Part shown: in pieces, positions 1,965 through 22,624 of the stretch
Layout of the letters: each line of letters begins with the position of its first letter
How positions within the stretch are numbered: the first letter of the stretch is position 1
DNA from: Fidelibacterota bacterium
GTDB taxonomy: Bacteria; Fidelibacterota; UBA2242
Assembly: GCA_003645845.1 (NCBI GenBank)
Contig: QNCV01000001.1
Span: 1-28,975 of the forward strand
Length of the DNA: 28,975 nt
Direction of reading: 5' to 3'
Translations under genes and position numbers: made by a program
Notes under the pieces: model-generated
The model's input: only the letters and a program-made list of their open reading frames with translations
Database searches by the model: none
Told to the model about the DNA's origin: nothing

Positions 1965-4124
1965 ATGAAAACAGAGACTTTTCCAGGTATTAATAAGGGA
2001 ACCGGAATGAGTTCCGGGAAGTTATTTGAAAATCTCCCCGGAATGGTTTACCTGTGCAAGAATGATCCCGATTGGACCATGTTGATGATCAGTCAGAATT
2101 GTTCCGATGTGACCGGCTATTCGTCGGAAGATCTGATCGGAAATCGGCGCATCAGTTACGCACAGCTGATTCTTCAGGATGACCGGGATATGGTTTATGC
2201 TGAAATTCAGAAAGCCCTTCAGGATAAAACCTCATATATCATCGAATACCGAATTAAAACGGCAGCAGGAAAGATCAAATGGGTCTGGGAGCAGGGGATC
2301 GGGGTATATTCCCGCCGGGGAGAGTTGAAATATCTGGAAGGCTATATTACCGAGCTGTCGGAAGCCCAGATCATGGGAAAAGAAGAAAAGTACCGTCTCC
2401 TGGTTGAAAATATTCAGGATGGGATAGTTATCAGCCAGTTTGATAAATTTATATTTATTAATGAACGGTTTGCCCGGATGCTGGGATATACGGTTAAAGA
2501 ATTGCTCATGCGGGACTATAGAGATGTCTATACCGAAAAAGGACTGCAAATTCTGAGCGAACGACACGGTCGACGGCAGCGGGGCGAAGTCGTGCCCTCG
2601 AAGTATGAGACGGTCTTTAAGCGTAAAGACGGTTCTGAAATCGACGTCGAGGCCAATGTAACAATCATTGATTATAAAGGCAACCCCGCTACATTTGCGG
2701 TTATCCGCGATATCCGGGAACGAAAGAGAGCCGAACAGGAAATTCGGAAGCAGCGGCAGTATTTTGAAGCAGTCTTTGACAGTAGTCCTGCAGCAATTGT
2801 ATCACTCGATATGGACGAAAGGATCGTCAGAGCCAACGCTCAGTTTGAAAAGTTGTTTGGTTATACTCTGGATGAAATCAGAGGACACAACATCGATGAT
2901 CTGATTGCGCCCAAAGAGTTACAGCAGGAAGCGCGACAGATTACCCGGAAGATACGGCAGGGCGGCATGGCGGGCACCGAGTCAAAGCGGTTGCGAAAAG
3001 ACGGTACCCCGGTGGATGTCTCCATCAGCGGCGCTCCTATCAAAGTCGACGGGAAACAGATCGGTATTATCGCAATATATGTCGATATTTCCGAAATTAA
3101 AAAAGCCCATGAAGAGATTAACCGGCAGAAACAGTATTTTGAAGCCCTGGTCAACAGTGCCTCAGACGCTATTGTTTCGCTTGATCTCAATAACAAGGTG
3201 GTCAGTGTCAACCGCTGTTTTGAGAAGATGTTTGGCTATTCGCTCGAAGAGATCAAAGGTAAAAATATTGACCATTACATTATACCGGATGAAGATATAG
3301 ATAGCGCCATTAATATTACGGCGTCGGTGCAGAAGGGCAGCGAAACTCATTTTGAGCGTAAGCGCAAACGCAAAGATGGCAGCCCGATAGATGTGGAGAT
3401 CAGCGGTGCACCGATAGTCGTGAACGGAGAACATATCGGAGCTTTGGCGATTTACAGAGATATTACCGAACGGAAACGATTTGAAAACGCTTTGACGGTT
3501 GAACGCAATCTGATGCGGACCCTGATCGATAACCTACCCGATTCAATTTATGTTAAGGATACTGAGAGTCGGAAAACTCTTTCTAACCGGGCGAATTACA
3601 GTGATATGGGCGCCAAATCGGAGTCGGAGGTGCTTGGCAAAACCGATTTCGATTTTTATCCGCCGGACCTGGCGGCGTCCTTCGTTGCGGATGACAAGAA
3701 AGTCATTCAGACCGGTCAACCGGTAATTAACCGGGAGGAAGAAACCACCCGCTCCGACGGCAGCATCGGCTGGCAACTGACTTCGAAAATTCCGCTGCGA
3801 GACAGCAACGGAAACATAACCGGGCTTGTTGGAATCGGGCATGATATTACCGAGCGAAAGAAAGCAGAAGAAGAGCGGGAGAAAATCATTTCCGAACTGC
3901 GGGAGGCTCTGGCGAAGGTGAATACCCTGAGCGGCCTGATTCCGATTTGTGCCAATTGCAAGAAAATCAGGGACGATAAAGGATACTGGAGTGATGTAGA
4001 ACTCTACATATCCAAACATTCCACAGCAGAGTTCAGCCACGGACTCTGTAACGATTGCATGAAAAAATTATATCCCGAGCAGTACAAACGTATGGTGAAG
4101 CAGGGCAAGATTAAAGATCACTGA
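1965..4124 (+). CDS. Multi-PAS sensor protein (five PAS/PAC repeats) with a C-terminal CxxC...HGxCxxC domain and no kinase or cyclase output
   Basis: Repeated PAS signatures (GYxxxE, RKDG, DITERK S-boxes). Ends in ICANCKKIRDDKGYW...FSHGLCNDC. Confidence 0.9.
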   Translation: MKTETFPGINKGTGMSSGKLFENLPGMVYLCKNDPDWTMLMISQNCSDVTGYSSEDLIGNRRISYAQLILQDDRDMVYAEIQKALQDKTSYIIEYRIKTAAGKIKWVWEQGIGVYSRRGELKYLEGYITELSEAQIMGKEEKYRLLVENIQDGIVISQFDKFIFINERFARMLGYTVKELLMRDYRDVYTEKGLQILSERHGRRQRGEVVPSKYETVFKRKDGSEIDVEANVTIIDYKGNPATFAVIRDIRERKRAEQEIRKQRQYFEAVFDSSPAAIVSLDMDERIVRANAQFEKLFGYTLDEIRGHNIDDLIAPKELQQEARQITRKIRQGGMAGTESKRLRKDGTPVDVSISGAPIKVDGKQIGIIAIYVDISEIKKAHEEINRQKQYFEALVNSASDAIVSLDLNNKVVSVNRCFEKMFGYSLEEIKGKNIDHYIIPDEDIDSAINITASVQKGSETHFERKRKRKDGSPIDVEISGAPIVVNGEHIGALAIYRDITERKRFENALTVERNLMRTLIDNLPDSIYVKDTESRKTLSNRANYSDMGAKSESEVLGKTDFDFYPPDLAASFVADDKKVIQTGQPVINREEETTRSDGSIGWQLTSKIPLRDSNGNITGLVGIGHDITERKKAEEEREKIISELREALAKVNTLSGLIPICANCKKIRDDKGYWSDVELYISKHSTAEFSHGLCNDCMKKLYPEQYKRMVKQGKIKDH

Positions 4125-9237: not shown

Positions 9238-10811
9238 TTGTTCTGATTCTGTGTGCTCAGATGCTTATTATTCTGGCGTCCTGTTCGGCTCGTCTTCCCC
9301 GGAAGCATCTTCCGGAGCCGGTTCTGCCGAATCATCCGGAAATTTTGAATTTATACTGGGAAAGCTGGCGCCTTGTTAATAATGCCCGCTATCAGGGTAC
9401 CCGGTTGAACGGATTTCCTGATCAATATTTAAATATAGAAAACGGAAGTGTTATTAATCAATGGCCAACCCTCTCTTCGGCCCTTTTCGCTATGTACGGG
9501 TACCGGGATTTTCCGGTCATGCAAACGCTGGATCTGTTTTACAACAAGCAGCGTTCCGACGGGTTCATAGCCCGGACGTATATCGTCAATTCCGGTGATC
9601 CTTTGCATCTACCCACACAATTGGACCCCATGATTAATCCGCCACTGTTTGCCTGGGTTGAGTTGAAATATTTTACCCTTTCCGGTGACAGCGTCCGTCT
9701 GCGGCAGGTTTTCCCGAAATTGGAGCGTTATTTTGCCTGGATTGATCAGTTCTGCCGGGGAAAATACGAGGCGACGGATTTGTATTACACGACGGCAATT
9801 GGTTCCGGGATGCTGAATCTGCCCCGCGGTGATGTTGAGCATGGTGGCTGGACGGACTTGACGGCTCAGATGGCCCTCTTCGCCGAGCAGCTTGCCAGGA
9901 TTGCCGGCATTCTGAATGTTCCGGAAAGGGAGCGATACTACCATGAGCGTTATCTGTCCATTAGTCGGGCGATTCAGTCAAAACTCTGGAATCCCGATTC
10001 CAGTTTTTATTACGATTATTCACGTGAGGGTAAGACATCCTTTCTGCGGACAATCAACGGTTTTTGGCCTTTGCTGGCTGGCATTCCCGACACCGATCAG
10101 GCCCGCCGATTGATCGGATATCTCAAAGACCCCAACGATTTTGCGCCGAAACACATGTTCCCCAGTGTCTCCGTCCGGGAAATCGATTATAATCCCCTGG
10201 GATTTTACTGGCGCGGTGGCGTATGGGGAATTTCCAATTACATGATTATTCAGAGCCTGAAGCGCTATGGTGAGACGGAGTTTGCCCGCGAAGCGGCCTG
10301 GAACCATTTGAAAAATATGGCGGAAGTATATCGGGGATTCGATCTTTCGGTGGATGCCGAATGCCCGGAACCGGAGAGCGGAATGGCTGGCAAAATATGG
10401 GAGGTTTATGCGCCCGAAAAGGTCTGTCCGGGGACCAACTGGAACGCTCAAAATCTCTGCCGGCCTGACCAGATCAGCTTTTCCGGTCACGGCCCGATCT
10501 CTATGGTCATTGAGGATATTCTGGGGTTTCAGACCGATGCTCCGGAGGACGAACTTCGGTGGCATATGACCAGGGCGGATCGGCACGGTATCCGACGCCT
10601 GGGTTTCGGTGATAATACGGTATCTGTCTGGACAGAACCTGATACGGTCCGACCGGAAGTTCTGACTTTGGCAGGATCCACGGATTCGGAGTTTAAACTG
10701 ATCATTGATACTGTACAGGACAGTTTTCTGGTAAACTTTGATCCGGGACCGATTGCGGTCAGTTTTCTACCGGCGGATTATCTGCTGAGGGGCCGTTTCA
10801 GTCAACAATAA
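9189..10811 (+). CDS. GH63/MGH1-like (trehalase-type alpha6/alpha6 barrel) glycoside hydrolase-fold lipoprotein, probably catalytically degenerate
   Basis: Lipobox LASC. Motifs QRSDGFIAR, NPPLFAWVE, LWNPDSSFYYD, FWPLLAG, YWRGGVW, IWEVYAPE. Start codon uncertain. Confidence 0.8.
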   Translation: MVRRRITQRRTSRAALIVLILCAQMLIILASCSARLPRKHLPEPVLPNHPEILNLYWESWRLVNNARYQGTRLNGFPDQYLNIENGSVINQWPTLSSALFAMYGYRDFPVMQTLDLFYNKQRSDGFIARTYIVNSGDPLHLPTQLDPMINPPLFAWVELKYFTLSGDSVRLRQVFPKLERYFAWIDQFCRGKYEATDLYYTTAIGSGMLNLPRGDVEHGGWTDLTAQMALFAEQLARIAGILNVPERERYYHERYLSISRAIQSKLWNPDSSFYYDYSREGKTSFLRTINGFWPLLAGIPDTDQARRLIGYLKDPNDFAPKHMFPSVSVREIDYNPLGFYWRGGVWGISNYMIIQSLKRYGETEFAREAAWNHLKNMAEVYRGFDLSVDAECPEPESGMAGKIWEVYAPEKVCPGTNWNAQNLCRPDQISFSGHGPISMVIEDILGFQTDAPEDELRWHMTRADRHGIRRLGFGDNTVSVWTEPDTVRPEVLTLAGSTDSEFKLIIDTVQDSFLVNFDPGPIAVSFLPADYLLRGRFSQQ

Positions 10812-11745
10812 AGTTTTCTCTGATCAAACTGGCGGTTGTCAATACATCTGCGACATAGGTGCGGCTGTTATTATAACGTAACAGTGCCCGTTGCTGACGC
10901 AGTATGTCATCCGTCCAGCCTTTACGGCTCAGAAAGTTTCCAACGCTCATAATGGCGTCAGTGTAATTATATAGATCGATTTTTCCATCCCGGTCGCCAT
11001 CGATGCCATACCGTAAAACATTCGAGGGCATGAACTGGGGATACCCGAAGGCGCCGGCGTAGGAACCGGGCAGTTCAAGAATATCCAGATGACTTTCGTC
11101 ATGGAGTCTTAGCAAAGCGCCGAATTCGGTCCGCGCCCAGGCTGCTTTACGAATAGCCCGTTTCTGATAAAGATTGATCAGATACCTTCGTTTATCAAAA
11201 CTCAGATAATGATATCGCTCGTTGATATAATTCTCAATCCGTGCCAGGGACTCCGGACTATCGGCATTTGAAAGGGAACTGAGAACATTGAAAACCGAGT
11301 ATTTGCCAACTATTTTACCCAGTTTTGTTTCGACAAACAGGACTGCGACGATAGCCTCTCTGTTTACTCCGAACCGCTGTTCGGCAGTATCCAACTGGCT
11401 CTGATAATGCTGCAGAAAATCTTCAATTTCATAGGTAACGTTTTCTGTATGGAAAAATGTACTGCTGTAACTGTCCATCGCCGGTGGACTTGATAACTTA
11501 ACGGCAATGTCAGGGTAATAGACCACCCGAGGGTCCCGAAAGAGCTGTTGCACTTCAGCCATATTAAAATTTTGTTCGGCGAGGTAGCTAAACAGCATGG
11601 CATAATCCCGGGACGGGACCGGCTTGGCATCCGTTTCCGGCACCATTGCGTAGTCGCGTACCCTGAATGAGAGCACAACGACCAGCAGTATAGCAACCAT
11701 AAGCCCTTTTTTAGTTCGTTTCAAATAATTTATTAAGTTCTTCAT
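10798..11745 (-). CDS. Lytic murein transglycosylase, MltB/SLT_2 family, with N-terminal membrane anchor
   Basis: VETKLG (catalytic Glu), GSYAGAFGYPQFMPS, EF-hand DGDRDGKIDL, YNNSRTYV. Confidence 0.92.
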   Translation of the reverse strand: MKNLINYLKRTKKGLMVAILLVVVLSFRVRDYAMVPETDAKPVPSRDYAMLFSYLAEQNFNMAEVQQLFRDPRVVYYPDIAVKLSSPPAMDSYSSTFFHTENVTYEIEDFLQHYQSQLDTAEQRFGVNREAIVAVLFVETKLGKIVGKYSVFNVLSSLSNADSPESLARIENYINERYHYLSFDKRRYLINLYQKRAIRKAAWARTEFGALLRLHDESHLDILELPGSYAGAFGYPQFMPSNVLRYGIDGDRDGKIDLYNYTDAIMSVGNFLSRKGWTDDILRQQRALLRYNNSRTYVADVLTTASLIRENFIVD

Positions 11746-13387: not shown

Positions 13388-14533
13388 GTGACTATGATCA
13401 AAAGCAAAGTCGTTGAAGAATTGATTCATTTTACTCAGAATGAGTATCCGGTAACCAGCGCTTATTTTACCCTGTCCAGTAAAGTCGGCAATCACAAAAC
13501 CAGTCTGGTTGAACTCAAAAAAATGATTCGTTACAAGAAGAATACGACCTATTTCAGGCAACTGAATGAAGTCGAGAAAAAATCGGTTTTAGCCGACTTC
13601 GAAAAAATTCTTAACTGGTTTGAAGAGGAACTGGATAGCTCAAAATATGTCAGCTCCATTTGCTTTTGTCAAAGCGGAACCGGTTTCTGGAAGGTTCGTA
13701 ATCTGCGGATTCCACTTCAGAATGAAATAATCATTCAGCCCAAACCCTCGATTTACCAACTGTCACAATTGTTCAGTCAATACAGTCGTTATGCGGTAGT
13801 TCTGGTGGATAAAAGCAAAGCCCGCATTTTTGAGCAGTCGCTGGGTGATTTTACCGAAATCTATGCCGTAGAGGACAATGCACCCGAGACTGTCAAAGTC
13901 GGGGGTTATCGTGGACGCCAGGAGCGTCGGGTCGAACGGAATATTAAAAAAGGGGTGGCGGAACATTACAAGGAGGTTGCCAATAAGATATTTGCTCTTA
14001 ATAAACGCCGGGATTTTAATTGGATTGTCCTGGGCGGCCGCCGGGAATCCGTCGGAAAGTTTCAAGGTATCCTGCATGATTACGTGGCTTCCAAAATTGC
14101 AGGAACGGTTGAAATTGAACCTCAGGCTCCCCTGAGCGAGGTCTTCAGTAAGGTTCAAAAGGCCGGTCTGAAGGCTCGCCGGAAGTATGAGACGGGACTG
14201 TTGGAAACTTTTAACAATAAAAAAACTGCCAACCAGGCCGTAGCCGGAATAGATGCGGTTTTACCGATGCTGCGGGATAATTGGGTGGATACTCTTTTAT
14301 TACAGGAGAATTACCGCCGTAAAGGGGTCTTTTGCCGGCATTGTCAGTATATCGATCTGTCGACGCACGCCGAGTGTCCAAAGCATGGCGGACCGCTTGA
14401 ACGAACCCATAATATAATCGAACATATGCTGCATAACGCCTTACTTCAGGGGGTTGATGTTCAATATCTGCAGCAATCGCTGGAGCAATACGGATATCTG
14501 GGCGCAATATTGCGCTTTCCTCTGACCTCCTGA
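13388..14533 (+). CDS. Bacterial archaeo-eukaryotic release factor (eRF1/aRF1-like, baeRF) family protein
   Basis: YAVVLVDKSKARIF, GG loop (VGGYRGRQERR), IVLGG, C-terminal eRF1 domain-3-like VDTLLL...CRHC...CPKHG...LGAILRF. GAGGAG ribosome-binding site. Confidence 0.85.
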   Translation: MTMIKSKVVEELIHFTQNEYPVTSAYFTLSSKVGNHKTSLVELKKMIRYKKNTTYFRQLNEVEKKSVLADFEKILNWFEEELDSSKYVSSICFCQSGTGFWKVRNLRIPLQNEIIIQPKPSIYQLSQLFSQYSRYAVVLVDKSKARIFEQSLGDFTEIYAVEDNAPETVKVGGYRGRQERRVERNIKKGVAEHYKEVANKIFALNKRRDFNWIVLGGRRESVGKFQGILHDYVASKIAGTVEIEPQAPLSEVFSKVQKAGLKARRKYETGLLETFNNKKTANQAVAGIDAVLPMLRDNWVDTLLLQENYRRKGVFCRHCQYIDLSTHAECPKHGGPLERTHNIIEHMLHNALLQGVDVQYLQQSLEQYGYLGAILRFPLTS

Positions 14534-14654: not shown

Positions 14655-14684
14655 TTGACATTATCCCGATATGAGGACTATATT
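14655..14684 (+). promoter_or_regulatory. Putative sigma70-type promoter of the motor operon
   Basis: Perfect TTGACA at 14655-14660, an 18-nt spacer, and TATATT at 14679-14684, about 70 nt upstream of the first ATG. Confidence 0.6.
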
Positions 14685-14753
14685 TTTTCTGAATGCAACG
14701 CCATAGTGTCAATTGTAAATATTTAGACACTTTATACCCGAAGGTGTGGGATT

Positions 14754-15725
14754 ATGAAAGTCAAAATTCTTTTTGTAGCCTTTCTTCTATTTCCTCTGAT
14801 ACAGGGGTGTAGTCTCTTCAGCAGCGAGGCTGTTGACGAGACGGAAACCGAGACGCTTCAAACTGCTCAGTCGACGGACACAGTGGTAGCGCCAGCTACC
14901 GGCCAGGTGGTAACCAACAGTACACTAACGCCAACCCGGCAATCCCGCTCGGTGGCAACTGCCCCTGCCCGGACGACTCCTGCTGATCAGGATTATGTGG
15001 TCAACGAGCTGACCTTTGAAGTGAAAAAATTGTCTGCCGAGCTGAAACATGTGCAAAGTCAGCTGCAAGACCTGCAGGCCAACAGCCAGATGTGGATGAA
15101 TCCACTGGCCATGTATGACAAGGAAATCGTGACCGATAACGGTACATCAATCTACGGTAAAATTATCTACCAGGATGATAAAATTGTCAAAGTAGAGACC
15201 CTGATCGGTTATCTGGTGCTGGATAAATCATCAATTGTCCGGGTAATTACCAATGTTCCCGAAGAGCCGGCTCAGAAATATGTGCCTCAGGAACTGGTGA
15301 GTGAGGTCTCGCGAGGCACCAGCTATCCTCAGGTTCCCCAACCGGCCTATATCTCCAAATCCGGTGAACCGGCGCAGCTGCCGGAAAGTGCTGCCAAACT
15401 GCCCAATTGTGTACTGGTCGGCAATATCAGTGAGAAAAAAGATCGTTCCGGGAACACCATCTTTTCCGGTGAGGTTAAGAATATCGGTGCCCGGCGTGCG
15501 GATTTTGTGAAGGTTAATTTTATTTTTCGGAAAAACTGGAGCGGCGACACAAAAACCCGGACCGCTTTCGTGGAAGGTACCTATTTTACTTTCGAAGATT
15601 CCGGAATTACGACGAACAATTCACTGTTGCCGGGTGCGACCGGTAAATTTGAGCTGATCATTCCCAAGAATTTTGGCAGCTTCATCGGCTATTCCTACAC
15701 AATTGAGTGGGAGCAGTATAAATAA
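14754..15725 (+). CDS. Lipoprotein: Thr-rich linker, coiled coil, small beta domain, C-terminal FxLYD-like Ig domain
   Basis: Lipobox IQGC (Cys19). Coiled coil NELTFEVKKLSAELKHVQSQLQDLQ. C-terminal GEVKNIG...VKVNF...LLPGATGKFEL resembles FxLYD domains. The stop overlaps the next start (TAATG). Confidence 0.7.
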   Translation: MKVKILFVAFLLFPLIQGCSLFSSEAVDETETETLQTAQSTDTVVAPATGQVVTNSTLTPTRQSRSVATAPARTTPADQDYVVNELTFEVKKLSAELKHVQSQLQDLQANSQMWMNPLAMYDKEIVTDNGTSIYGKIIYQDDKIVKVETLIGYLVLDKSSIVRVITNVPEEPAQKYVPQELVSEVSRGTSYPQVPQPAYISKSGEPAQLPESAAKLPNCVLVGNISEKKDRSGNTIFSGEVKNIGARRADFVKVNFIFRKNWSGDTKTRTAFVEGTYFTFEDSGITTNNSLLPGATGKFELIIPKNFGSFIGYSYTIEWEQYK

Positions 15726-16528
15726 TGCATTTACCATTCACTAAGATTGCCGGTTTGTCGTTTTTACTAATGGGATTCGCTTTTTCTCAAACCGACTCGA
15801 CTTTGATTGATATTTCTGAAAAAAAAGCGAAGCTGAACGAGAAGAATGTTCAGATGCTGGAATTGCAGTCCGATATCAGCAGTCATGACGAAGAGCTTCG
15901 GGCTATTCGGGATGAAATTGAAAAACTGAAAGCCTATAATCGGCGACTTCAGGATTCTTTGCTAACCAAACAGGCGGAGATTGATTCGCTGAAAGAGCAG
16001 CAGAACCAGGTGGAAAATTTTAAGATGATCGTCAATGCGTTTGACGAAGACAAAGCCCTGACCGATGAAATCCTGGAGTCAATTAAAAGCTCTGATGTGG
16101 CGCCGAAGGATACGGTGGCGACCGTTACTCTGGAGGAAACTCCGGATGATACGGAGTACCGGACACTATACAACGAAGCGCTTAATCTATATTTTGATCG
16201 GGATTATAAGTCCAGTATTGGCAAATTCAGAGAACTATTAACCCGCAGTCGGAAACATCCCCTGGCAGATAACTGCCAGTACTGGTTGGGTGAAAACTAT
16301 TATTCTCAGGAAAATTATTCCCAGGCAATTGCGGAATTTCAGAAAGTTGCTCCCCTGGGTGACGGTAATAAGGCGGATGCCGCTCTGTTTAAAATCGGGA
16401 TGAGCCAGCTGAAGATGGGACAGGACGCCTCCGCCCGGGAAACCTTTACCCGGCTGGAAAAACAGTTTCCCGACAGCGATTTGCTGGATAAAGCCCGGCA
16501 ATATTTAACGTCCCGGGAAAAGTTTTGA
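15725..16528 (+). CDS. CpoB/YbgF-like periplasmic coiled-coil plus TPR protein
   Basis: Signal peptide and long coiled coil, then YNEALNLYFDRDY, LADNCQYWLGENYYSQENYSQAIAEFQKV and KADAALFKIG, which are typical YbgF TPRs. Confidence 0.82.
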   Translation: MHLPFTKIAGLSFLLMGFAFSQTDSTLIDISEKKAKLNEKNVQMLELQSDISSHDEELRAIRDEIEKLKAYNRRLQDSLLTKQAEIDSLKEQQNQVENFKMIVNAFDEDKALTDEILESIKSSDVAPKDTVATVTLEETPDDTEYRTLYNEALNLYFDRDYKSSIGKFRELLTRSRKHPLADNCQYWLGENYYSQENYSQAIAEFQKVAPLGDGNKADAALFKIGMSQLKMGQDASARETFTRLEKQFPDSDLLDKARQYLTSREKF

Positions 16529-17277
16529 AAGGATATGTTTGTAAGGTAATTTTAATGCTTTGTCTGCCCCTAATCTTAGACGCTCAGGAAAGCGATACGA
16601 CGCGGGGTAAAACCGACAAAAGTTTCATGTACGATTTAGGAATCAAGATTGAGCCAGCGAGGGAGTCTGCCCCCCTTCAAGGCATTGGCGTTGCTAACCC
16701 AAGTTTGGTTCGACTACAGAGCCAAATGGACTCCCTCACCTCGGCTTTTTCAATGTATAAGCAGGATACCGACCGGCGTATTACAGAACTGGATCAAGCG
16801 CTTGATTCTGTGAAGCTGGTAAACAGGCAACTTGAAAAGCGGATTTATTTATCACCCTATGCATCGGCGGGAAATCCTCGTTTAATTTATTCAAAAAAAG
16901 AAGGAGAGCGCTTTTTTCAAAAGGGCACGGATGCCTATAACGCTCAAAATTATCCGGTTGCGGTGGATTATTTCCGGAAATGTATTGATAGTGAGGCCGG
17001 CGGTAGCCTGATCGGGGATGCCTATTTCTGGGTTGGTAACAGTTATATTCATCTCAAAGACGAATATCTGGCGCTGGAATATCTCAAACGGGTACCGGAA
17101 TATCCGCTATGTAAGAATATTGACGATGCACTTTTTCTGACGGCGGTTACCTACCGGAAACTGGGTGATGCAGAGATGGCCAGATTTTTTTTAGAGAGGC
17201 TGCTCAGGCGTTTTCCCGATGGGGAGATGGCCAAACTGGCTCTATTGGAGTTAAAGCGACTGAAGTCTATGGATTGA
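16525..17277 (+). CDS. Second CpoB/YbgF-like coiled-coil plus TPR protein
   Basis: TTG start overlaps the previous TGA. Signal peptide and coiled coil, then DAYFWVGNSY and DDALFLTAVTYRKLGD...LLRRFPDG. Confidence 0.75.
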   Translation: MKGYVCKVILMLCLPLILDAQESDTTRGKTDKSFMYDLGIKIEPARESAPLQGIGVANPSLVRLQSQMDSLTSAFSMYKQDTDRRITELDQALDSVKLVNRQLEKRIYLSPYASAGNPRLIYSKKEGERFFQKGTDAYNAQNYPVAVDYFRKCIDSEAGGSLIGDAYFWVGNSYIHLKDEYLALEYLKRVPEYPLCKNIDDALFLTAVTYRKLGDAEMARFFLERLLRRFPDGEMAKLALLELKRLKSMD

Positions 17278-17299
17278 GACCAAAACGGAGTAAGAATTA

Positions 17300-18640
17300 A
17301 TGATAAAACGTACTTATATTCTGTTACTAATCATTCTGATACTGACGGTTTCGGCGTTGGGGCAGATAACGCGGGTCGCTTTTACCAAACCAGGATATAT
17401 GATGAAAATCCCGACCAGCAGTATCTATCGGACCCCCTATATTTTCCGCACCGGGATCAGCACCGATATTTACGGATTTGCCGATACCCTGATTACGCGG
17501 GGCGTCTTTTTCGAAACCGATCTGTCCAACACGTTTAAGATTGGCGTTACGTCGATTCAGGGGTTGGGAACGAGTCCTCCGGTGGAATTTGGCCTCCATT
17601 TTCAAAAACGGCTATTCGTCTATGGCGATATCAGTTTCTCGGCCGGCATTCATGATCTCGTGTTGAAGCAGGGAGATAAAGAACTGAACATTGATACCAG
17701 GACCCTGTCGATTTTTGGGGTCATCAGTAATGAAAAACAATTTGAAAACAGCAGCATGTCTACCTATATGGGCTTTGGTACCGGTGGTTTGGCAACCGGG
17801 TTCGGGAGTGACTCGGCGACCAGTGCCGGCGTGTTTGCGGGGATTTTGCTGCATACCAATATCATGGCCGAGCGCGGCGGTGTCGAATTCATCGGTGAAT
17901 TTGATGGTGGCGGAATTAACGCTGGTGTGCGGATTCCCTTTACCAAGGACTACAATCTCTCACTGGGTGTCAATAATCTGGTTAAACTGTATAATTTCGG
18001 CGCGGAGGATTTTGACCTGACTAATGTCAGTGATTATCCCAGTCTGAATATCGGCCTTGACTTTCGGATTCCACGGGTCAAGCCCGAAAGCGCCCGGAGG
18101 CGCCGGCTGGAAGGCATGGTGGACGATGAATCCCAGATGGTTCTGGATATGGAAGAACAGTTTGCGATGAAGTTGGATTCGACTCTGAAAGCTGCGGATT
18201 TTGAAATTGCCAAACTGAAAGATTCTTTGCGGGTCTTTGAGTCTGAGATCAAATATCTGACCAGTGAAGTTGCTCAGCTGCGCCAGAAAACCGCAGTTTT
18301 GGAGGATTCGGTTCGTTCGGCAAAACTGGCCAGACACGCCATGGAGCAGAACATCAACCTGGCGCTTAAGCATCTCTCCCGTTCACTACGCTATTTCTAC
18401 GCCGGTGATTACCGGGAAGCGCTGCAGGAAGTCGAAGCGGCGATTGATCTGAATCCGAATCTGGCTCTGGCCTATGCCCGCCGGGGTTCGATCTATTATA
18501 AACTGGGCGATATTGACCGGGCCACCATCAACTGGAACCTGGCCCTGCGGATAGATCCCGAGTACGATGATGTTCGCAATATTTTGAGAGCCCTTAACGA
18601 AAACCGTCTCAGAAGCACAGGGTCGACTCGAAAGGAATAA
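17300..18640 (+). CDS. Outer-membrane beta-barrel (YjbH-like) fused to a coiled coil and C-terminal TPRs
   Basis: Signal peptide. Residues ~45-257 are Gly/aromatic alternating beta strands including EFDGGGINAGVRIPF. Residues ~265-352 are heptad-rich. Residues 353-425 are canonical TPRs (NPNLALAYARRGSIYYKLGD). Confidence 0.7.
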   Translation: MIKRTYILLLIILILTVSALGQITRVAFTKPGYMMKIPTSSIYRTPYIFRTGISTDIYGFADTLITRGVFFETDLSNTFKIGVTSIQGLGTSPPVEFGLHFQKRLFVYGDISFSAGIHDLVLKQGDKELNIDTRTLSIFGVISNEKQFENSSMSTYMGFGTGGLATGFGSDSATSAGVFAGILLHTNIMAERGGVEFIGEFDGGGINAGVRIPFTKDYNLSLGVNNLVKLYNFGAEDFDLTNVSDYPSLNIGLDFRIPRVKPESARRRRLEGMVDDESQMVLDMEEQFAMKLDSTLKAADFEIAKLKDSLRVFESEIKYLTSEVAQLRQKTAVLEDSVRSAKLARHAMEQNINLALKHLSRSLRYFYAGDYREALQEVEAAIDLNPNLALAYARRGSIYYKLGDIDRATINWNLALRIDPEYDDVRNILRALNENRLRSTGSTRKE

Positions 18641-18650
18641 GGATTAGTTT

Positions 18651-19439
18651 ATGGATATTGCAAGTTTATTAGGTATTTTAGCCGGCATTGGTTTAATTGT
18701 TCTGGGAATTTACCAGCTCACTCCCAACTTTATGATTTTTGTCAGTATGGCCAGCTTGCTGATCGTGGCCGGCGGTTCCTTTGCGGCCACTCTGCTGAGT
18801 TTTTCACTCAGCGATGTGTTTGGCCTGCTGCGCTCCGCCTTTGCGGTCTTTAAAAAACAGAAGATCGATCTGCCGGCGGAGGTGGACGCCATCGTGGAGC
18901 TGGCGCCGATTGCCCGCAAGAGCATGCAGGAGCTGGAAAAATCATTGGTCAATGTCAGGAACTACTTCCTTCGGGACGGTTTACAGATGGTGGTGGATGG
19001 CTATAACCCGGATGAAATCCGGGAAATCCTGGAAACCCGAATCGAAAACCGGATCCTTCGTGAAAAAAGCGAGGCCAATGTGCTGCGGACCATGGGCAAA
19101 TATTCCCCGGCTTTCGGAATGATCGGAACCCTGATCGGTCTGGTGGTGATGCTTTATGGGATGGCGGACATGGCCGGTGGCGGTGAAGACCCCATGGCCG
19201 TGCTGGGCGCCGGAATGGGCGCGGCGCTGATCACGACCTTTTACGGCACGATCCTGGCAAATATGTTTTTTAATCCCATGGCCGAAAAATTTGAAACCCG
19301 GATCAAAAAACAGACAACGATGCAACAGATGCTGATTGAGGGAACGTTGCTTATTCATGCACGTAAGCATCCTCTGATTGTCCGGGAAAAATTGAATTCC
19401 TATCTGAGGCCGCGGGATTGGAAGAAACCTGAGGAATAG
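18651..19439 (+). CDS. motA: Flagellar-type stator A subunit (MotA/PomA)
   Basis: MDIASLLG start, LLIVAGGSFAATL, ARK...LE, FLRDGLQMVVDG, SPAFGMIGTLIGLV, ALITTFYG, NMFFNPMAEK, PLIVREKLNSYL. Confidence 0.93.
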   Translation: MDIASLLGILAGIGLIVLGIYQLTPNFMIFVSMASLLIVAGGSFAATLLSFSLSDVFGLLRSAFAVFKKQKIDLPAEVDAIVELAPIARKSMQELEKSLVNVRNYFLRDGLQMVVDGYNPDEIREILETRIENRILREKSEANVLRTMGKYSPAFGMIGTLIGLVVMLYGMADMAGGGEDPMAVLGAGMGAALITTFYGTILANMFFNPMAEKFETRIKKQTTMQQMLIEGTLLIHARKHPLIVREKLNSYLRPRDWKKPEE

Positions 19440-19446
19440 AGCGTAA

Positions 19447-20133
19447 ATGACTGAAAAGGCGGCTCGTAAAAAGAAAAATTTATATGCTGAAGAGGGCGGC
19501 AAAGAGGCCGAACCGTGGCTGTTGACCTACGGTGATATGATGACGCTTCTGATGACCTTCTTCGTGCTGCTGTTTTCCATGAGCACCATAGATCCGGTGA
19601 AGCTGGAACAGTTCAGTGATTCCATGGGGCAGGCTCTGGGAAAGAAAACCAAGGCCAAAAAATATTCCCTGGCGGAAATCTACAAGGATGTCGTTAAGGT
19701 TATCGAGGAAGAATCTCTTCAGGATCAGATTCAGGTGGAGACCAGTGAAAGGGGTGTCGCCATTAAAATTCCCAGCGAGATTTCCTTTGGTGTCGGTAGC
19801 GCCGATTTAGATCCCCGCATTTATCCGATTTTAAATAAGTTTGTCGATATGATGCAAAAATCAACCTACCCGATTGCCATTGAGGGGCATACCGATAATG
19901 TTCCCATGCGTTCAGCCGTGTTTCCGTCGAACTGGGAGCTTTCGGCGGCCCGGGCCGCCCAGGTGGTGCGTTATTACATCAATCAGGGAATTTCATCGGA
20001 ACGGTTTCAGGCCATTGGGTATGCGGATACCCGGCCCCGGGCCCGCGGGGCTACTATTGCGGAAGCCAACGCAACTTCGGCGCAGAGAGACATGAACCGC
20101 CGGGTTGAAATTTTCTTTCTGACAATTCAATAA
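19447..20133 (+). CDS. motB: Flagellar-type stator B subunit (MotB/PomB) with OmpA-like peptidoglycan-binding domain
   Basis: WLLTYGDMMTLLMTFFVLLFSMS (ion-binding Asp30), plug helix, IEGHTD, NWELSAARA, NRRVEI. Confidence 0.93.
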   Translation: MTEKAARKKKNLYAEEGGKEAEPWLLTYGDMMTLLMTFFVLLFSMSTIDPVKLEQFSDSMGQALGKKTKAKKYSLAEIYKDVVKVIEEESLQDQIQVETSERGVAIKIPSEISFGVGSADLDPRIYPILNKFVDMMQKSTYPIAIEGHTDNVPMRSAVFPSNWELSAARAAQVVRYYINQGISSERFQAIGYADTRPRARGATIAEANATSAQRDMNRRVEIFFLTIQ

Positions 20134-20149
20134 ATTTAGGAGACATGCA

Positions 20150-21622
20150 ATGCTCAAGAGTCGGAAATATATGAATACAATAGCGGCGCTCTGTATCATC
20201 CTGCTGATGATCTCCCAACAGGCGCTGTCTCAGGAAAATCAGATGTCCTATCTCTCCCAGAAACTGATGCTGGAAAACAGCATTCGTGAGCGGGTGGCGG
20301 ATGCTCTGGATAAACTTCTTGATGATATAAAGTTTGTAGTGGATGTCGCTGTGGAACTGGAGTTTAAGGTGCCGGAGAGAACCGTTACCGAAACCCAGCC
20401 CCTTACTCGGCAGGAAACTCCGACCACTCCAGCGAAGGCGGCTTCAAATGTATTGACGGCGCAGGAATCAACAACAAAACCTGCATCAAAACAGGGCAGT
20501 GCTGATCTGGGATTACCATTGCCGGGATTTGAAACTCCTGAGGATGTAGTCCGAACCGAAGAGAAAACCACACCGGTTCTGAAAGAGGGTCCGCCGACTG
20601 AATCCGAGACATCGGAAACGTCGACAACTACCGTAACTCCGGCTCAGCAACCAGCCGGAATTGTTAGCAAGACGGTTCAGGCAGGCAGGGCTGTACCGGT
20701 TGTCAAACGGCAACAGGTCAACATCATTATGGAAGACGGTGTTACGCCTGAAATTATTGAAAATGTTCGTCAGGTTGCAGCAATTGCGTCCCACTATGAC
20801 CGCACCCGGGGGGATGTGATCAGTGTAATGACTGCATCATTTAAAAAACGGGAAAAACAGGATGGCGCCGAAGCCGTTATTTTAAAGAATATTGCTGAGA
20901 AAATTGATGATCTGGAACGTCGTCAACAGCGTGCCGAACAGGAAGCCCGGATTGAAGCCCAGAAGCGGATTGAGCGTCAGGCCGTGGTGCGGGATTCACT
21001 GCGAATTCAGGAATTACGGAAGCAGATTGCCGATTTACAGAACCAGCTTCAGGCTCCCATGTTACCTGATGACCAGAGGGCTCGGACCGAAGCCATGGCC
21101 AGTGCACGGGAAACCGAATTGGCGAATCTCAAAGAGCAGCTGCGGGAAAGTAACCGGCGGCTCCAGGAACTTGAGATGGGCGCTATGGAGACGATTCCGC
21201 CGCGCTTTATTCGCTCTGATAATCTGGCGCTATACATCATTTTAGGTCTTTTTGTCATTGCTCTGTTGATATTGCTGATCCTTTTACTGGTGAATCGAAG
21301 AAATCATCAAAAACGTCAGGAACTGGAATGGGGCTATGGCACGAAAGTCCCGATGGGCCCCAGACCGCAGCCGGCAGCCCGGCCGCAACCCCAGACACCG
21401 CCGACCGCACCGCCACCTGTTCAACCCGAAGCTCCGGCTGCACCACAAGCACCGTCGGTACAGGCACCATCGGTTGATCCTGCCGCCCTGAAGGAAGAGA
21501 TGAAAAGCATTAAACAATCGGTCATTTCCATGAGTGTTGGTCAGCCCGATACGGCCTCGCGGGTAATTAACGAATGGCTGGGACAGACGAAAAAAACCGA
21601 AGAGTCCGAATCGGAATTCTAA
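20150..21622 (+). CDS. FliF-like (M-ring C-terminal/RBM3-like) protein with signal peptide, periplasmic coiled coil, single TM and cytoplasmic FliG-binding tail
   Basis: LENSIRERVADAL..FVVDVAVELEF and KRQQVNII...IENVRQVAAIASHYDRTRGDVISV resemble the split RBM3 of FliF. The C-terminal QPDTASRVINEWL resembles the FliF tail. It lies directly upstream of fliG. Confidence 0.72.
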   Translation: MLKSRKYMNTIAALCIILLMISQQALSQENQMSYLSQKLMLENSIRERVADALDKLLDDIKFVVDVAVELEFKVPERTVTETQPLTRQETPTTPAKAASNVLTAQESTTKPASKQGSADLGLPLPGFETPEDVVRTEEKTTPVLKEGPPTESETSETSTTTVTPAQQPAGIVSKTVQAGRAVPVVKRQQVNIIMEDGVTPEIIENVRQVAAIASHYDRTRGDVISVMTASFKKREKQDGAEAVILKNIAEKIDDLERRQQRAEQEARIEAQKRIERQAVVRDSLRIQELRKQIADLQNQLQAPMLPDDQRARTEAMASARETELANLKEQLRESNRRLQELEMGAMETIPPRFIRSDNLALYIILGLFVIALLILLILLLVNRRNHQKRQELEWGYGTKVPMGPRPQPAARPQPQTPPTAPPPVQPEAPAAPQAPSVQAPSVDPAALKEEMKSIKQSVISMSVGQPDTASRVINEWLGQTKKTEESESEF

Positions 21623-21635
21623 GAAGGAGTGTAAT

Positions 21636-22568
21636 ATGGTAGATTTTAAAAACCTCGACGGTTTAGATAAAGTGGCCATCCTGTTTAAAACCCTGGGTAA
21701 CAACCTGGCCCTGCAACTATTTAAGGGTATGACAAAAGACCAGATTCGCAAAGTCCGGGAACGAATGAGCAGCATTAATAATATACCCTTTACAGTGAAA
21801 AAGGAGATTCTGGAGGAATTTTATTTCGGCTTTGTTTCGGAAAAATTTTCTCCACCTACCGAAGAGACAAAAAAGCCCTTTGAATTTTTACTTAATATGA
21901 CCGATGAGCAGGTCGTTTATCTGATTGCTACGGAGACACCGCGCATTATGGCTCTGGCCATTGCTCAGCTGCCGGTGGATCGACAGGTGAATGTGCTTCA
22001 GGCTCTTGACCCCACCATTCAGCCCAAAGTGATGACCGAAATCGGTCATCTGGGTGATATCCCTCTGGAGGGGGTGGTCAGCATTGCCAATGAATTGAAA
22101 GAAAAATCCGCTTTTATCCCCAGGGCGTCGGAATTCAACCGGGGTGGCGGAGAAAATCTGGCCGGGATTCTCAGCCAAATGCGTCCCAGGGATGAAAAAC
22201 GTTTTCTGGAACATCTGGAAAAAGAGGCTCCGGATGTGGTTCAGGAAGTTAAACGTCACTATTTCAGTTTTGAGGATTTGCCTAAACTGCCACATGATAT
22301 CCTGGCGGATGTGCTGAAATCCGTAGAAGCTTCTGAGGTGGCCTACGCTCTCAAGGGACAGCCTGAAGAAATGAAAGAGTTGTTTATCAATTCGCTGCCC
22401 CAGCGAACCCAGATTATTCTGGAAGATGAAATGGAATTGCTGGAGGGTCCCCAGCCCCGCCGCAAAGTCGAAGCCGCCCAGAAGGCGATTGTGGACAAAG
22501 CCCGGGAACTGGAGAAAGAGGGTCGTTTTCGGCTGGAAGATTTTATGGAAGCCGATTTTATCGAGTAA
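21636..22568 (+). CDS. fliG: Rotor/switch protein FliG homolog (310 aa)
   Basis: GLDKVAILFKTLG (FliG-N), PFEFL, ETPRIMALAI (FliG-M), GGENLAGIL, FSFEDL, ALKG...PQR...EDE...GP...VEAAQKAI (FliG-C). Confidence 0.92.
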   Translation: MVDFKNLDGLDKVAILFKTLGNNLALQLFKGMTKDQIRKVRERMSSINNIPFTVKKEILEEFYFGFVSEKFSPPTEETKKPFEFLLNMTDEQVVYLIATETPRIMALAIAQLPVDRQVNVLQALDPTIQPKVMTEIGHLGDIPLEGVVSIANELKEKSAFIPRASEFNRGGGENLAGILSQMRPRDEKRFLEHLEKEAPDVVQEVKRHYFSFEDLPKLPHDILADVLKSVEASEVAYALKGQPEEMKELFINSLPQRTQIILEDEMELLEGPQPRRKVEAAQKAIVDKARELEKEGRFRLEDFMEADFIE

Positions 22569-22596
22569 ACTTCTTGAGCATTGGATATGAGAAACG

Positions 22597-22624
22597 AAAA
22601 TGCCCCGTTCCTTAGGGGCATTTT
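22597..22624. terminator. Intrinsic (likely bidirectional) terminator closing the motor operon
   Basis: Perfect 10-bp inverted repeat AAAATGCCCC-gttcctta-GGGGCATTTT, starting 29 nt after the fliG stop. Confidence 0.8.

Follow-up and report, generated by a model that had tools for sequence, protein, structure and literature searches.

A flagellar-type stator and a FliF-like/FliG rotor set encoded with outer-membrane partners in the Fidelibacterota: probably an undescribed envelope machine

Ion-driven motors of the 5:2 type power a limited set of bacterial machines, namely the flagellum, the Ton and Tol systems, the gliding/type IX secretion motor, Agl-Glt, and Zorya. The core of the flagellar motor consists of MotA5B2 or PomA5B2 stators, FliG, and the membrane-supramembrane (MS) ring made of FliF. 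In FliF, RBM3 is the ring-building domain, while RBM1 and RBM2 seat the export gate. To our knowledge, FliG and FliF are known only as flagellar parts, with relatives of FliF also found in injectisomes and in a sporulation channel. Here, a stretch of 28,975 nucleotides (the window: contig QNCV01000001.1 of assembly GCA_003645845.1, positions 1 to 28,975) is described from a bacterium of the Fidelibacterota, also called Marinimicrobia, which are among the most abundant phyla of the deep ocean. It carries an operon of eight genes (g1 to g8), where genes for a lipoprotein (g1), two CpoB-like tetratricopeptide repeat (TPR) proteins (g2 and g3), and a barrel-helix-TPR protein (g4) are followed by motA (g5), motB (g6), a gene for a FliF-like protein (g7), and a paralogue of fliG (g8). 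Very likely, this operon encodes a functional machine that is independent of the flagellum, and it is probably an envelope machine that has not been described so far. No published description of the operon was found in the literature. Nonetheless, surveys have repeatedly found rotor proteins in non-motile bacteria (PMC12199754), and motAB together with fliG, in an unclear role, have been noted in non-flagellated Elusimicrobiota (Uzun et al. 2022).

The operon shares several features with the flagellar motor core: a MotA/MotB pair that has the plug, the channel Asp, and an anchor of OmpA type; a FliG of three domains in which the hinge motifs and, largely, the charges of the torque helix are retained; a protein with RBM3, a transmembrane segment, and a C-terminal tail; and the gene order motA-motB-fliF-like-fliG. 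In contrast to the flagellar core, the operon neither needs nor is linked to genes for an export gate, FliM/N, rod, hook, or filament, and it has its own outer-membrane partners. Its rotor proteins also differ. In g7, a signal peptide replaces the first transmembrane segment (TM1), RBM1 and RBM2 are missing, the collar has become a disordered insert, and a stalk has been added. The operon FliG, for its part, lacks EHPQ/Arg160 and approximately 27 residues of the linker between its N and M domains, and all family scores fall below the equivalog cutoffs. A comparison can also be made with fused FliF-FliG proteins, from which the operon differs by a rotor that is split into two genes and by its long stalk; a natural fusion of this kind reportedly exists in Chlamydia. 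Engineered Vibrio FliF-FliG fusions have been described as well (PDB 8Z4D; PMC10941966).

Tol-Pal with CpoB has, like the operon, a motor of the ion-driven 5:2 family, a periplasm-spanning helical protein, coiled-coil/TPR proteins of CpoB type, an OmpA-like peptidoglycan binder, and an outer-membrane target. However, the operon motor is of the flagellar type and would be coupled through cytoplasmic FliG instead of a transmembrane helix, there is no TolB or Pal, and the CpoB matches are below cutoff. In GldLM/PorLM and Agl-Glt, outer-membrane complexes with TPR lipoproteins and barrels among their parts are driven by an inner-membrane 5:2 motor, an arrangement comparable to that proposed here, and GldLM comes from the same FCB (Fibrobacteres, Chlorobi, and Bacteroidetes) superphylum. 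Nevertheless, there is no sequence homology with GldL/GldM or the Glt proteins beyond generic TPR, and their motors lack FliG and FliF. Finally, high-torque flagellar motors have periplasmic stator scaffolds, such as PflA/PflB, in which periplasmic TPR proteins are encoded with, or act on, MotB-type stators, although these scaffolds belong to complete flagella. MotX and FlcA have also been listed as TPR proteins (PMC13277936).

A preliminary description, made from the letters of the window alone, had pointed to eight tightly packed co-directional genes with the contents given above. The open reading frames between 14754 and 22568 agree with this layout, as g1/g2 and g2/g3 overlap and the other genes are separated by 7-22 nt, and evidence from Pfam, NCBIfam, and the lipobox agrees with the claimed domains of g1 to g8. 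The window had also been said to lack fliM/fliN, export gate, rod, hook, flagellin, and che genes, and indeed no other flagellar gene was found in it, the remainder being housekeeping genes; tolQRAB and pal were not found in the window either. The claim that there is no flagellum, however, holds for the window and not for the genome bin to which it belongs (G000, 89.8% complete), where a broad flagellar set is present on other contigs. There, FlhA (894 bits), FliM, FliN, rod proteins, and a MotB are encoded on contig C11; a FliF (PF01514, 196 bits) adjoining a canonical FliG (TIGR00207, 368.9 bits, above the cutoff of 226.7) on C139; a hook-like protein and a MotA on C217; and flagellin-family proteins on C299 and C188. 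Because these contigs hold a separate FliF, canonical FliG, and stator, the operon is an extra, paralogous rotor-stator set in this genome. The proposal that its torque core was repurposed, and is not the flagellar copy, agrees with a flagellar set that has its own fliF, fliG, and motAB, and with the occurrence of the cluster in 98 genomes without FlhA and FliM/N and in a cultured non-motile species (see below).

It should be mentioned that the flagellar contigs have a GC content of 0.38-0.42, compared with 0.484 for contig C1 and a genome mean of 0.444, and are not tetranucleotide outliers. Of seven congeners sampled, G000 alone has flagellar genes. The six others all have the cluster. They are also all without FlhA, which leaves some room for mis-binning. 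The flagellar genes of this bin reflect either a recent loss in its relatives or mis-binning from a related population; its canonical FliG groups with those of family mates in the tree. The main conclusion is unaffected by this question.

The distribution of the operon was followed in 201 genomes of Marinimicrobia/Fidelibacterota, with metagenome-assembled genomes 57-100% complete. The FliF-like gene is present in 129 of them, which represent 61 of 78 genera, while FlhA is found in 48 and FliM/N in 46, all FlhA-positive. Among the genomes with FlhA, 31 have the cluster and 17 do not; among those without it, 98 have the cluster, these being also devoid of FliM/N, and 55 do not. The frequency of the cluster is therefore the same in both groups (65% with FlhA vs 64% without). 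The FliG_C scores also separate into two groups: canonical copies score 130-150 bits and occur in FlhA-positive genomes only, whereas cluster copies score 65-105 bits and adjoin the FliF-like gene. In five cluster-positive genomes, one of which is closed, neither flagellin nor any rod family protein was found.

The order g1 to g8 is kept in all 20 loci compared from across the phylum, with intact reading frames in every one; hence the first four genes are syntenic with motAB-fliF-like-fliG, as had been anticipated. In marine clades, there is one CpoB-like gene (g3) instead of two. A scan for g4 in named genomes gave 230 loci, and all informative titles were Marinimicrobia, Neomarinimicrobiota, or Fidelibacterota. 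Conversely, the cluster was found in none of 22 genomes of one genus (g22) and in none of 13 from a family with genomes of about 1 Mb (f12). For g1 to g8 and the following gene, g9, the ratio of non-synonymous to synonymous substitution rates (dN/dS) relative to flagella-less congeners is 0.02-0.21, values that are approximate, with dS saturated. In all, these comparisons indicate that the operon is self-contained, flagellum-independent, under purifying selection, and conserved across Marinimicrobia/Fidelibacterota.

Among the carriers is Fidelibacter multiformis IA91, the only cultured member of the phylum, which is described as a non-motile diderm whose cell wall depends on muropeptides from other bacteria (PMC11652737). 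Its closed genome, a single contig of 2,788,509 bp, carries the full g1-g8 cluster, including the homologues of g4, MotA, and g7 (BFN36228.1, FMIA91_01070; BFN36229.1; and BFN36231.1, respectively; exact sequences). Searches of this genome found no FlhA, FliM/N, canonical FliG, flagellin, or rod protein. The full operon without flagellar genes in this cultured, non-motile bacterium is reported here for the first time. Apart from the operon, IA91 has an orphan flagellar-type stator approximately 7 kb downstream (L157, 7648-9858), which comprises a MotA gene followed by two MotB-like genes, with housekeeping genes on its flanks. Its MotA groups with the MotA from contig C210 of G000 (2401-3249; 99% support) and, consequently, this second stator is also conserved.

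As for the stator of the operon itself, g5 matches PF01618 (4e-29) and its best NCBIfam families are MotP (180.2 bits, cutoff 394) and PomA (176.8 bits, cutoff 341), both below the equivalog cutoffs. In g6, the plug (1.3e-21) and the OmpA domain (9e-20) are recognized, and the best NCBIfam match, MotD, is also below its equivalog cutoff (182.4 bits vs 283). Across the family, Asp30, the plug helix, and the OmpA-like peptidoglycan-binding motifs of MotB are invariant, while R89 and E96 in the MotA loop are conserved, with one residue fewer between them than in flagellar copies. Together, g5 and g6 encode an entire MotA/MotB stator of the flagellar type, plug, channel Asp, and peptidoglycan anchor included. 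No co-variation of the charges in the MotA loop with the FliG torque helix was seen across clades. In the MotA tree, the E. coli branch was too long for rooting.

In g8, the three domains of FliG are recognized: FliG_N (PF14842, 2.6e-16), FliG_M (PF14841, 2.3e-11), and FliG_C (PF01706, 4.9e-30). Nevertheless, its TIGR00207 score of 143.5 bits is below the equivalog cutoff of 226.7, and it shares 26% identity with the bin's own canonical FliG. The FliM-binding EHPQ/Arg160 motif is lost: only its Glu is kept in 21/21 cluster FliGs, which have E, Q, N, or S in place of Arg160. In canonical FliGs, by contrast, Arg160 is present in 17/17 and EHPQ in 16/17, the remaining one having ENPQ. Such a loss is in keeping with a system that has no FliM/N. 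The stator-contact residues, on the other hand, are largely retained. In the numbering of E. coli FliG (K264, R281, D288, D289, and R297), K264 never varies, R or K occupies position 281, D or E occupies position 288, and the GG and FxFED hinge motifs are kept; position 289 is E in the close clade and Pro, after a four-residue deletion, in marine clades. The cluster FliG has therefore kept the N domain, through which FliG binds FliF, and a good part of the torque helix, but not the FliM site. A maximum-likelihood tree, of the kind proposed in the preliminary description, places the cluster FliGs in a single clade (100/100) at approximately 2.6 substitutions/site from the canonical copies, with which E. 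coli FliG falls; the tree is unrooted and has a single outgroup. This split points to an old duplication or to fast early divergence. Matches that suggested a third FliG in some genomes were mostly internal repeats or MgtE, with the exception of one fusion protein that is described below.

The FliF-like protein g7 appears to be a FliF derivative cut down to RBM3, one transmembrane segment, and a tail similar to those that bind FliG. From its N terminus, it is made up of a signal peptide, an RBM3 that is split by a disordered Thr/Pro/Glu insert, a helical stalk of 121 residues, a transmembrane segment (353-386), a Pro-rich linker, and a tail that ends in VINEWL. PF08345, the FliF C-terminal/RBM3 family, matches with 30.5 bits (cutoff 23.8), whereas PF01514 (YscJ_FliF, RBM1/RBM2) gives no match in g7 and its sole match in the genome is the FliF on C139. 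A g7 profile matched RBM3 of solved FliF structures (E ~1e-4), and hhalign against residues 237-441 of E. coli FliF gave a probability of 88.6% (E 2.7e-6). The N-terminal hydrophobic segment is a predicted signal peptide, cleavable between ALS and QEN, and there is only one further transmembrane segment. Between RBM3 and this segment, the stalk measures 118-172 residues over 17 homologues, or 18-26 nm if extended. The region of the collar is replaced by a variable Thr/Pro/Glu insert with a single invariant motif, LPLPGFE. It was considered whether this motif could be a new peptide ligand for TPRs, an idea weakened by its alignment with GGVPGALSN from the collar region of FliF. The C-terminal tail is conserved (SVVSMSVGQP..A.RI...WL) and aligns weakly, with 2.2 bits, with the FliG-binding tail of Vibrio FliF. 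A third rotor-like module was observed in another genome of the same order (G073, contig C45; L155, 7580-11149). It encodes a 509-residue fusion of signal peptide, RBM3-like, transmembrane, and FliG-like parts, which carries the LPGF motif of g7 and is followed by two secreted TPR proteins with a C-terminal unit resembling that of g4; no stator was found within 18 kb of it.

Regarding the partner proteins, coiled-coil-like segments were found in g1, g2, g3, g4, and g7, in agreement with the five coiled-coil proteins counted before. In a monomer AlphaFold2 model, as was also made for g4, g1 has a disordered tether, a 40-residue helix, a five-stranded Sm/SH3-like beta-module, a linker, and a C-terminal beta-sandwich (predicted local distance difference test, pLDDT, ~90). 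Its fold matches are weak, the best being the trimeric lipoprotein SadB (E 3e-3), and no solved structure was matched by sequence; it is, however, conserved in 20/20 loci. In marine clades (L034-L040), the lipobox of g1 is gone and an ordinary signal peptide is followed by an additional N-terminal beta-sandwich that is CarboxypepD_reg-like; these are the same clades that have a shorter FliG torque helix. A g1 paralogue of 233 residues with a coiled coil, a small beta-module, and a beta-sandwich is encoded elsewhere in the bin (C19, 10705-11403), with no stator in its context. With respect to the CpoB-like proteins, TIGR02795 matches g2 with 81.3 bits and g3 with 46.8 bits, both below the cutoff of 90.1. 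TPR_6 and TPR_2 also match g2, and the coiled-coil-like segments are at 34-123 in g2 and 60-110 in g3.

The model of g4 (mean pLDDT 72) consists of approximately 14 strands at 47-258 (pLDDT ~70-80), a helix of 86 residues (13 nm), and a confident TPR. Its best Foldseek matches are outer-membrane barrels, namely FapF, a KdgM-type porin, OmpG, OMPLA, and a designed 12-stranded barrel, with template modelling scores (TM-scores, target-normalised) of 0.55 for FapF, 0.56 for the KdgM-type porin, and 0.61 for the designed barrel; by sequence, no solved structure was matched. An outer-membrane barrel as the N-terminal domain, and with it the barrel-coiled coil-TPR fusion previously claimed, is therefore supported at the level of the predicted fold. 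By contrast, the label YjbH-like did not stand, as hhalign against E. coli YjbH gave a probability of 0.08. Among the accessory proteins, g4 is the most conserved, and its C-terminal TPR is nearly invariant across the phylum, which suggests that it has a fixed binding partner. Its beta-domain family has 132 representatives among 1.84 billion proteins in an exhaustive search, more distant hits being weak, and a word-based search for stand-alone homologues of the barrel outside the phylum gave mainly full-length Marinimicrobia proteins. At the sensitivity used, which is limited outside the phylum, the partner set of g1, g2/g3, and g4 seems to be phylum-specific.

Predicted cleavage of the signal peptides of g2, g3, g4, g7, and g9 occurs before Gln in every case (FS/Q, DA/Q, LG/Q, LS/Q, and HA/Q, respectively). 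Gln after the cleavage site is a pattern reported for substrates of signal peptidase I in Bacteroidetes, and its presence as the first mature residue fits the export of these proteins. A homologue of g9 follows fliG in 9/20 loci, all of them from relatives of the same order and eight in one flank cluster. It has weak TPR matches only, and its dN/dS is 0.07-0.11. Thus, g9 is a possible lineage-specific ninth member of the operon, with uncertain membership.

The positions of all these features, and those of neighbouring genes, are given in Table 1. It had been claimed that a promoter and a terminator bound the operon. In effect, both sites are present, but promoter-like and hairpin sites in the region are not more frequent than in shuffled sequence. 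The boundaries of the operon at the promoter-like site and at the hairpin are thus no more than plausible. The eRF1-like gene that precedes the operon is its neighbour in 11/20 loci, including distant families (G013, G004, and IA91). A lytic transglycosylase gene also lies near the operon and may matter given the muropeptide-scavenging biology of the phylum, although no conserved linkage was seen.

Table 1. Coordinates, in the window, of the operon, its putative boundary sites, and neighbouring genes.
Feature	Position	Strand	Evidence or remark
Lytic transglycosylase gene	10798..11745	-	SLT_2; 3 kb upstream of the operon
eRF1-like gene	13388..14533	+	baeRF family 10; ~220 nt upstream of the operon
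Promoter-like site, TTGACA-18-TATATT	14655..14684	+	Upstream of g1; 11/12 matches to a consensus that may not be the host's
g1, lipoprotein, 323 aa	14754..15725	+	Lipobox LIQGC
g2, secreted coiled-coil and CpoB/YbgF-like TPR protein, 267 aa	15725..16528	+	TIGR02795, TPR_6, TPR_2
g3, second secreted coiled-coil and CpoB-like TPR protein, 250 aa	16525..17277	+	TIGR02795
g4, predicted N-terminal outer-membrane beta-barrel, helix, and C-terminal TPR, 446 aa	17300..18640	+	AlphaFold2 model, fold search
g5, MotA, flagellar-type stator A subunit, 262 aa	18651..19439	+	PF01618
g6, MotB with plug, Asp30, and OmpA-like peptidoglycan-binding domain, 228 aa	19447..20133	+	Domain matches
g7, FliF-like protein, 490 aa	20150..21622	+	PF08345 only
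g8, FliG paralogue with N, M, and C domains, 310 aa	21636..22568	+	FliG_N, FliG_M, FliG_C
Terminator-like 10-bp GC-rich hairpin, A and T runs on its flanks	22597..22624		After fliG
g9, secreted alpha-helical, weakly TPR-like protein, 382 aa	22643..23791	+	3' of the hairpin

What this set of proteins does can be approached through its parts. An envelope-spanning machine that turns ion flow into mechanical work is favoured because stator, FliG, and g7-stalk parts are combined with outer-membrane and periplasmic helix-TPR partners. In such a machine, g7 would assemble into a ring via RBM3, and its tails would hold a ring of FliG beneath the inner membrane without FliM/N; since FliM/N are absent, the proposed FliG ring would have no switch. 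MotA5B2 units anchored to peptidoglycan would turn or push this ring by ion flow, and the g7 stalk would carry the movement to the outer periplasm, where the barrel-helix-TPR protein g4, together with g2/g3 and g1, would receive it. The output would be mechanical work on the outer envelope rather than swimming, with no export function, and might be transport or remodelling, or else the displacement of components at the surface or in the outer membrane. That g7 and FliG form a closed ring in continuous rotation is plausible, although the probability falls slightly short of even. As a whole, the proposal is more tentative: an undescribed ion-driven rotary machine of the diderm envelope would have arisen from the core of the flagellar motor through an ancient duplication, and Fidelibacterota would have retained it for some purpose that is not swimming. 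Torque would pass from a FliG ring that has no switch, via a palisade of long stalks, to a barrel/TPR complex in the outer membrane. Such a machine could serve surface movement, remodelling of the outer membrane or peptidoglycan, or uptake of cell-wall fragments in a phylum that scavenges muropeptides. Several observations weigh against this rotary proposal. If mounted on long stalks, a ring could turn only inside or across the layer of peptidoglycan, an awkward arrangement in mechanical terms. In addition, the beta-collar of FliF is replaced by a disordered insert in g7, from which RBM1/RBM2 are also missing, and the torque helix of FliG in marine clades is shortened by four residues and contains one less acidic residue, with no matching change in MotA. 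Moreover, IA91 is non-motile, and the genes conserved on the flanks of the 20 loci, searched as a clue to a cargo, were only housekeeping and eRF1-like genes.

The mechanical difficulty posed by the peptidoglycan would disappear if there were no ring at all, since single helices can cross its mesh while a rotating ring cannot. In a force transducer similar to Tol-Pal, g7 would be an inverted TolA, with a distal globular domain, a helical stalk, and a transmembrane segment, that is tugged by the stator through FliG. Without full rotation, it would act with the CpoB-like proteins, MotB, and the g4 barrel in tethering of the outer membrane, constriction, or peptidoglycan handling. This explanation is rather unlikely, yet it is the main alternative and is favoured by the two CpoB/YbgF-like TPR proteins, and the g7 stalk is long enough for the periplasm. 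The unusual peptidoglycan biology of the group, where IA91 needs scavenged muropeptides (PMC11652737), would also be in line with it. Besides, TolB_N has no match in G000, whose single motor of ExbB type resembles a Ton system; nonetheless, TolB_N was not found in a Bacteroides control either, and its absence could therefore be group-wide. A distribution of the operon complementary to that of Tol-Pal was set aside as uninformative for the same reason. Against a ringless transducer stand the ring-building character of RBM3, the fact that FliG is known to work only as a ring, the CpoB matches that remain below the family cutoff, and the lack of a Pal or TolB partner. Alternatively, the absence of a linked cargo gene and the non-motility of IA91 would be easier to understand if the proteins sensed envelope stress or the ion-motive force, or gated ion flow. 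Such a regulatory role is improbable, as none of the eight proteins has a signalling domain, and a system with an anchor in the peptidoglycan, a stalk of such length, and a barrel in the outer membrane is built like a mechanical link.

Two further explanations would tie the operon to the flagellum, and both are contradicted by the distribution and selection data. The presence of flagellar genes in the G000 bin, and of the cluster in 31 of the 48 flagellated genomes, could be read as an accessory or alternative rotor-stator set of a conventional flagellum that serves, for instance, a second motor mode. This is extremely improbable: 98 genomes have the cluster but neither FlhA nor FliM/N, the six congeners are likewise FlhA-negative, and non-motile IA91 also carries it, while the cluster FliG has no FliM site and g7 has no RBM1/RBM2. 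Similarly, where a non-motile species has an incomplete rotor set, this is often taken for a remnant (PMC12199754), and the operon could be the decaying rest of a lost flagellum with no present function. This can hardly be reconciled with reading frames that are intact in 20/20 loci, dN/dS of 0.02-0.21, phylum-wide conservation alongside four or five dedicated partners of non-flagellar type, and coexistence with intact flagellar genes in 31 genomes.

If the favoured reading of an envelope-spanning, ion-driven machine is correct, a rotor-stator module that does not depend on the flagellum would be a new member of the small set of machines with 5:2 motors. It would also help to explain why rotor proteins are found in non-motile bacteria (PMC12199754), and it bears on how flagellar parts are reused in evolution. 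As the module is carried by IA91, which is in culture, the question is open to experiment.

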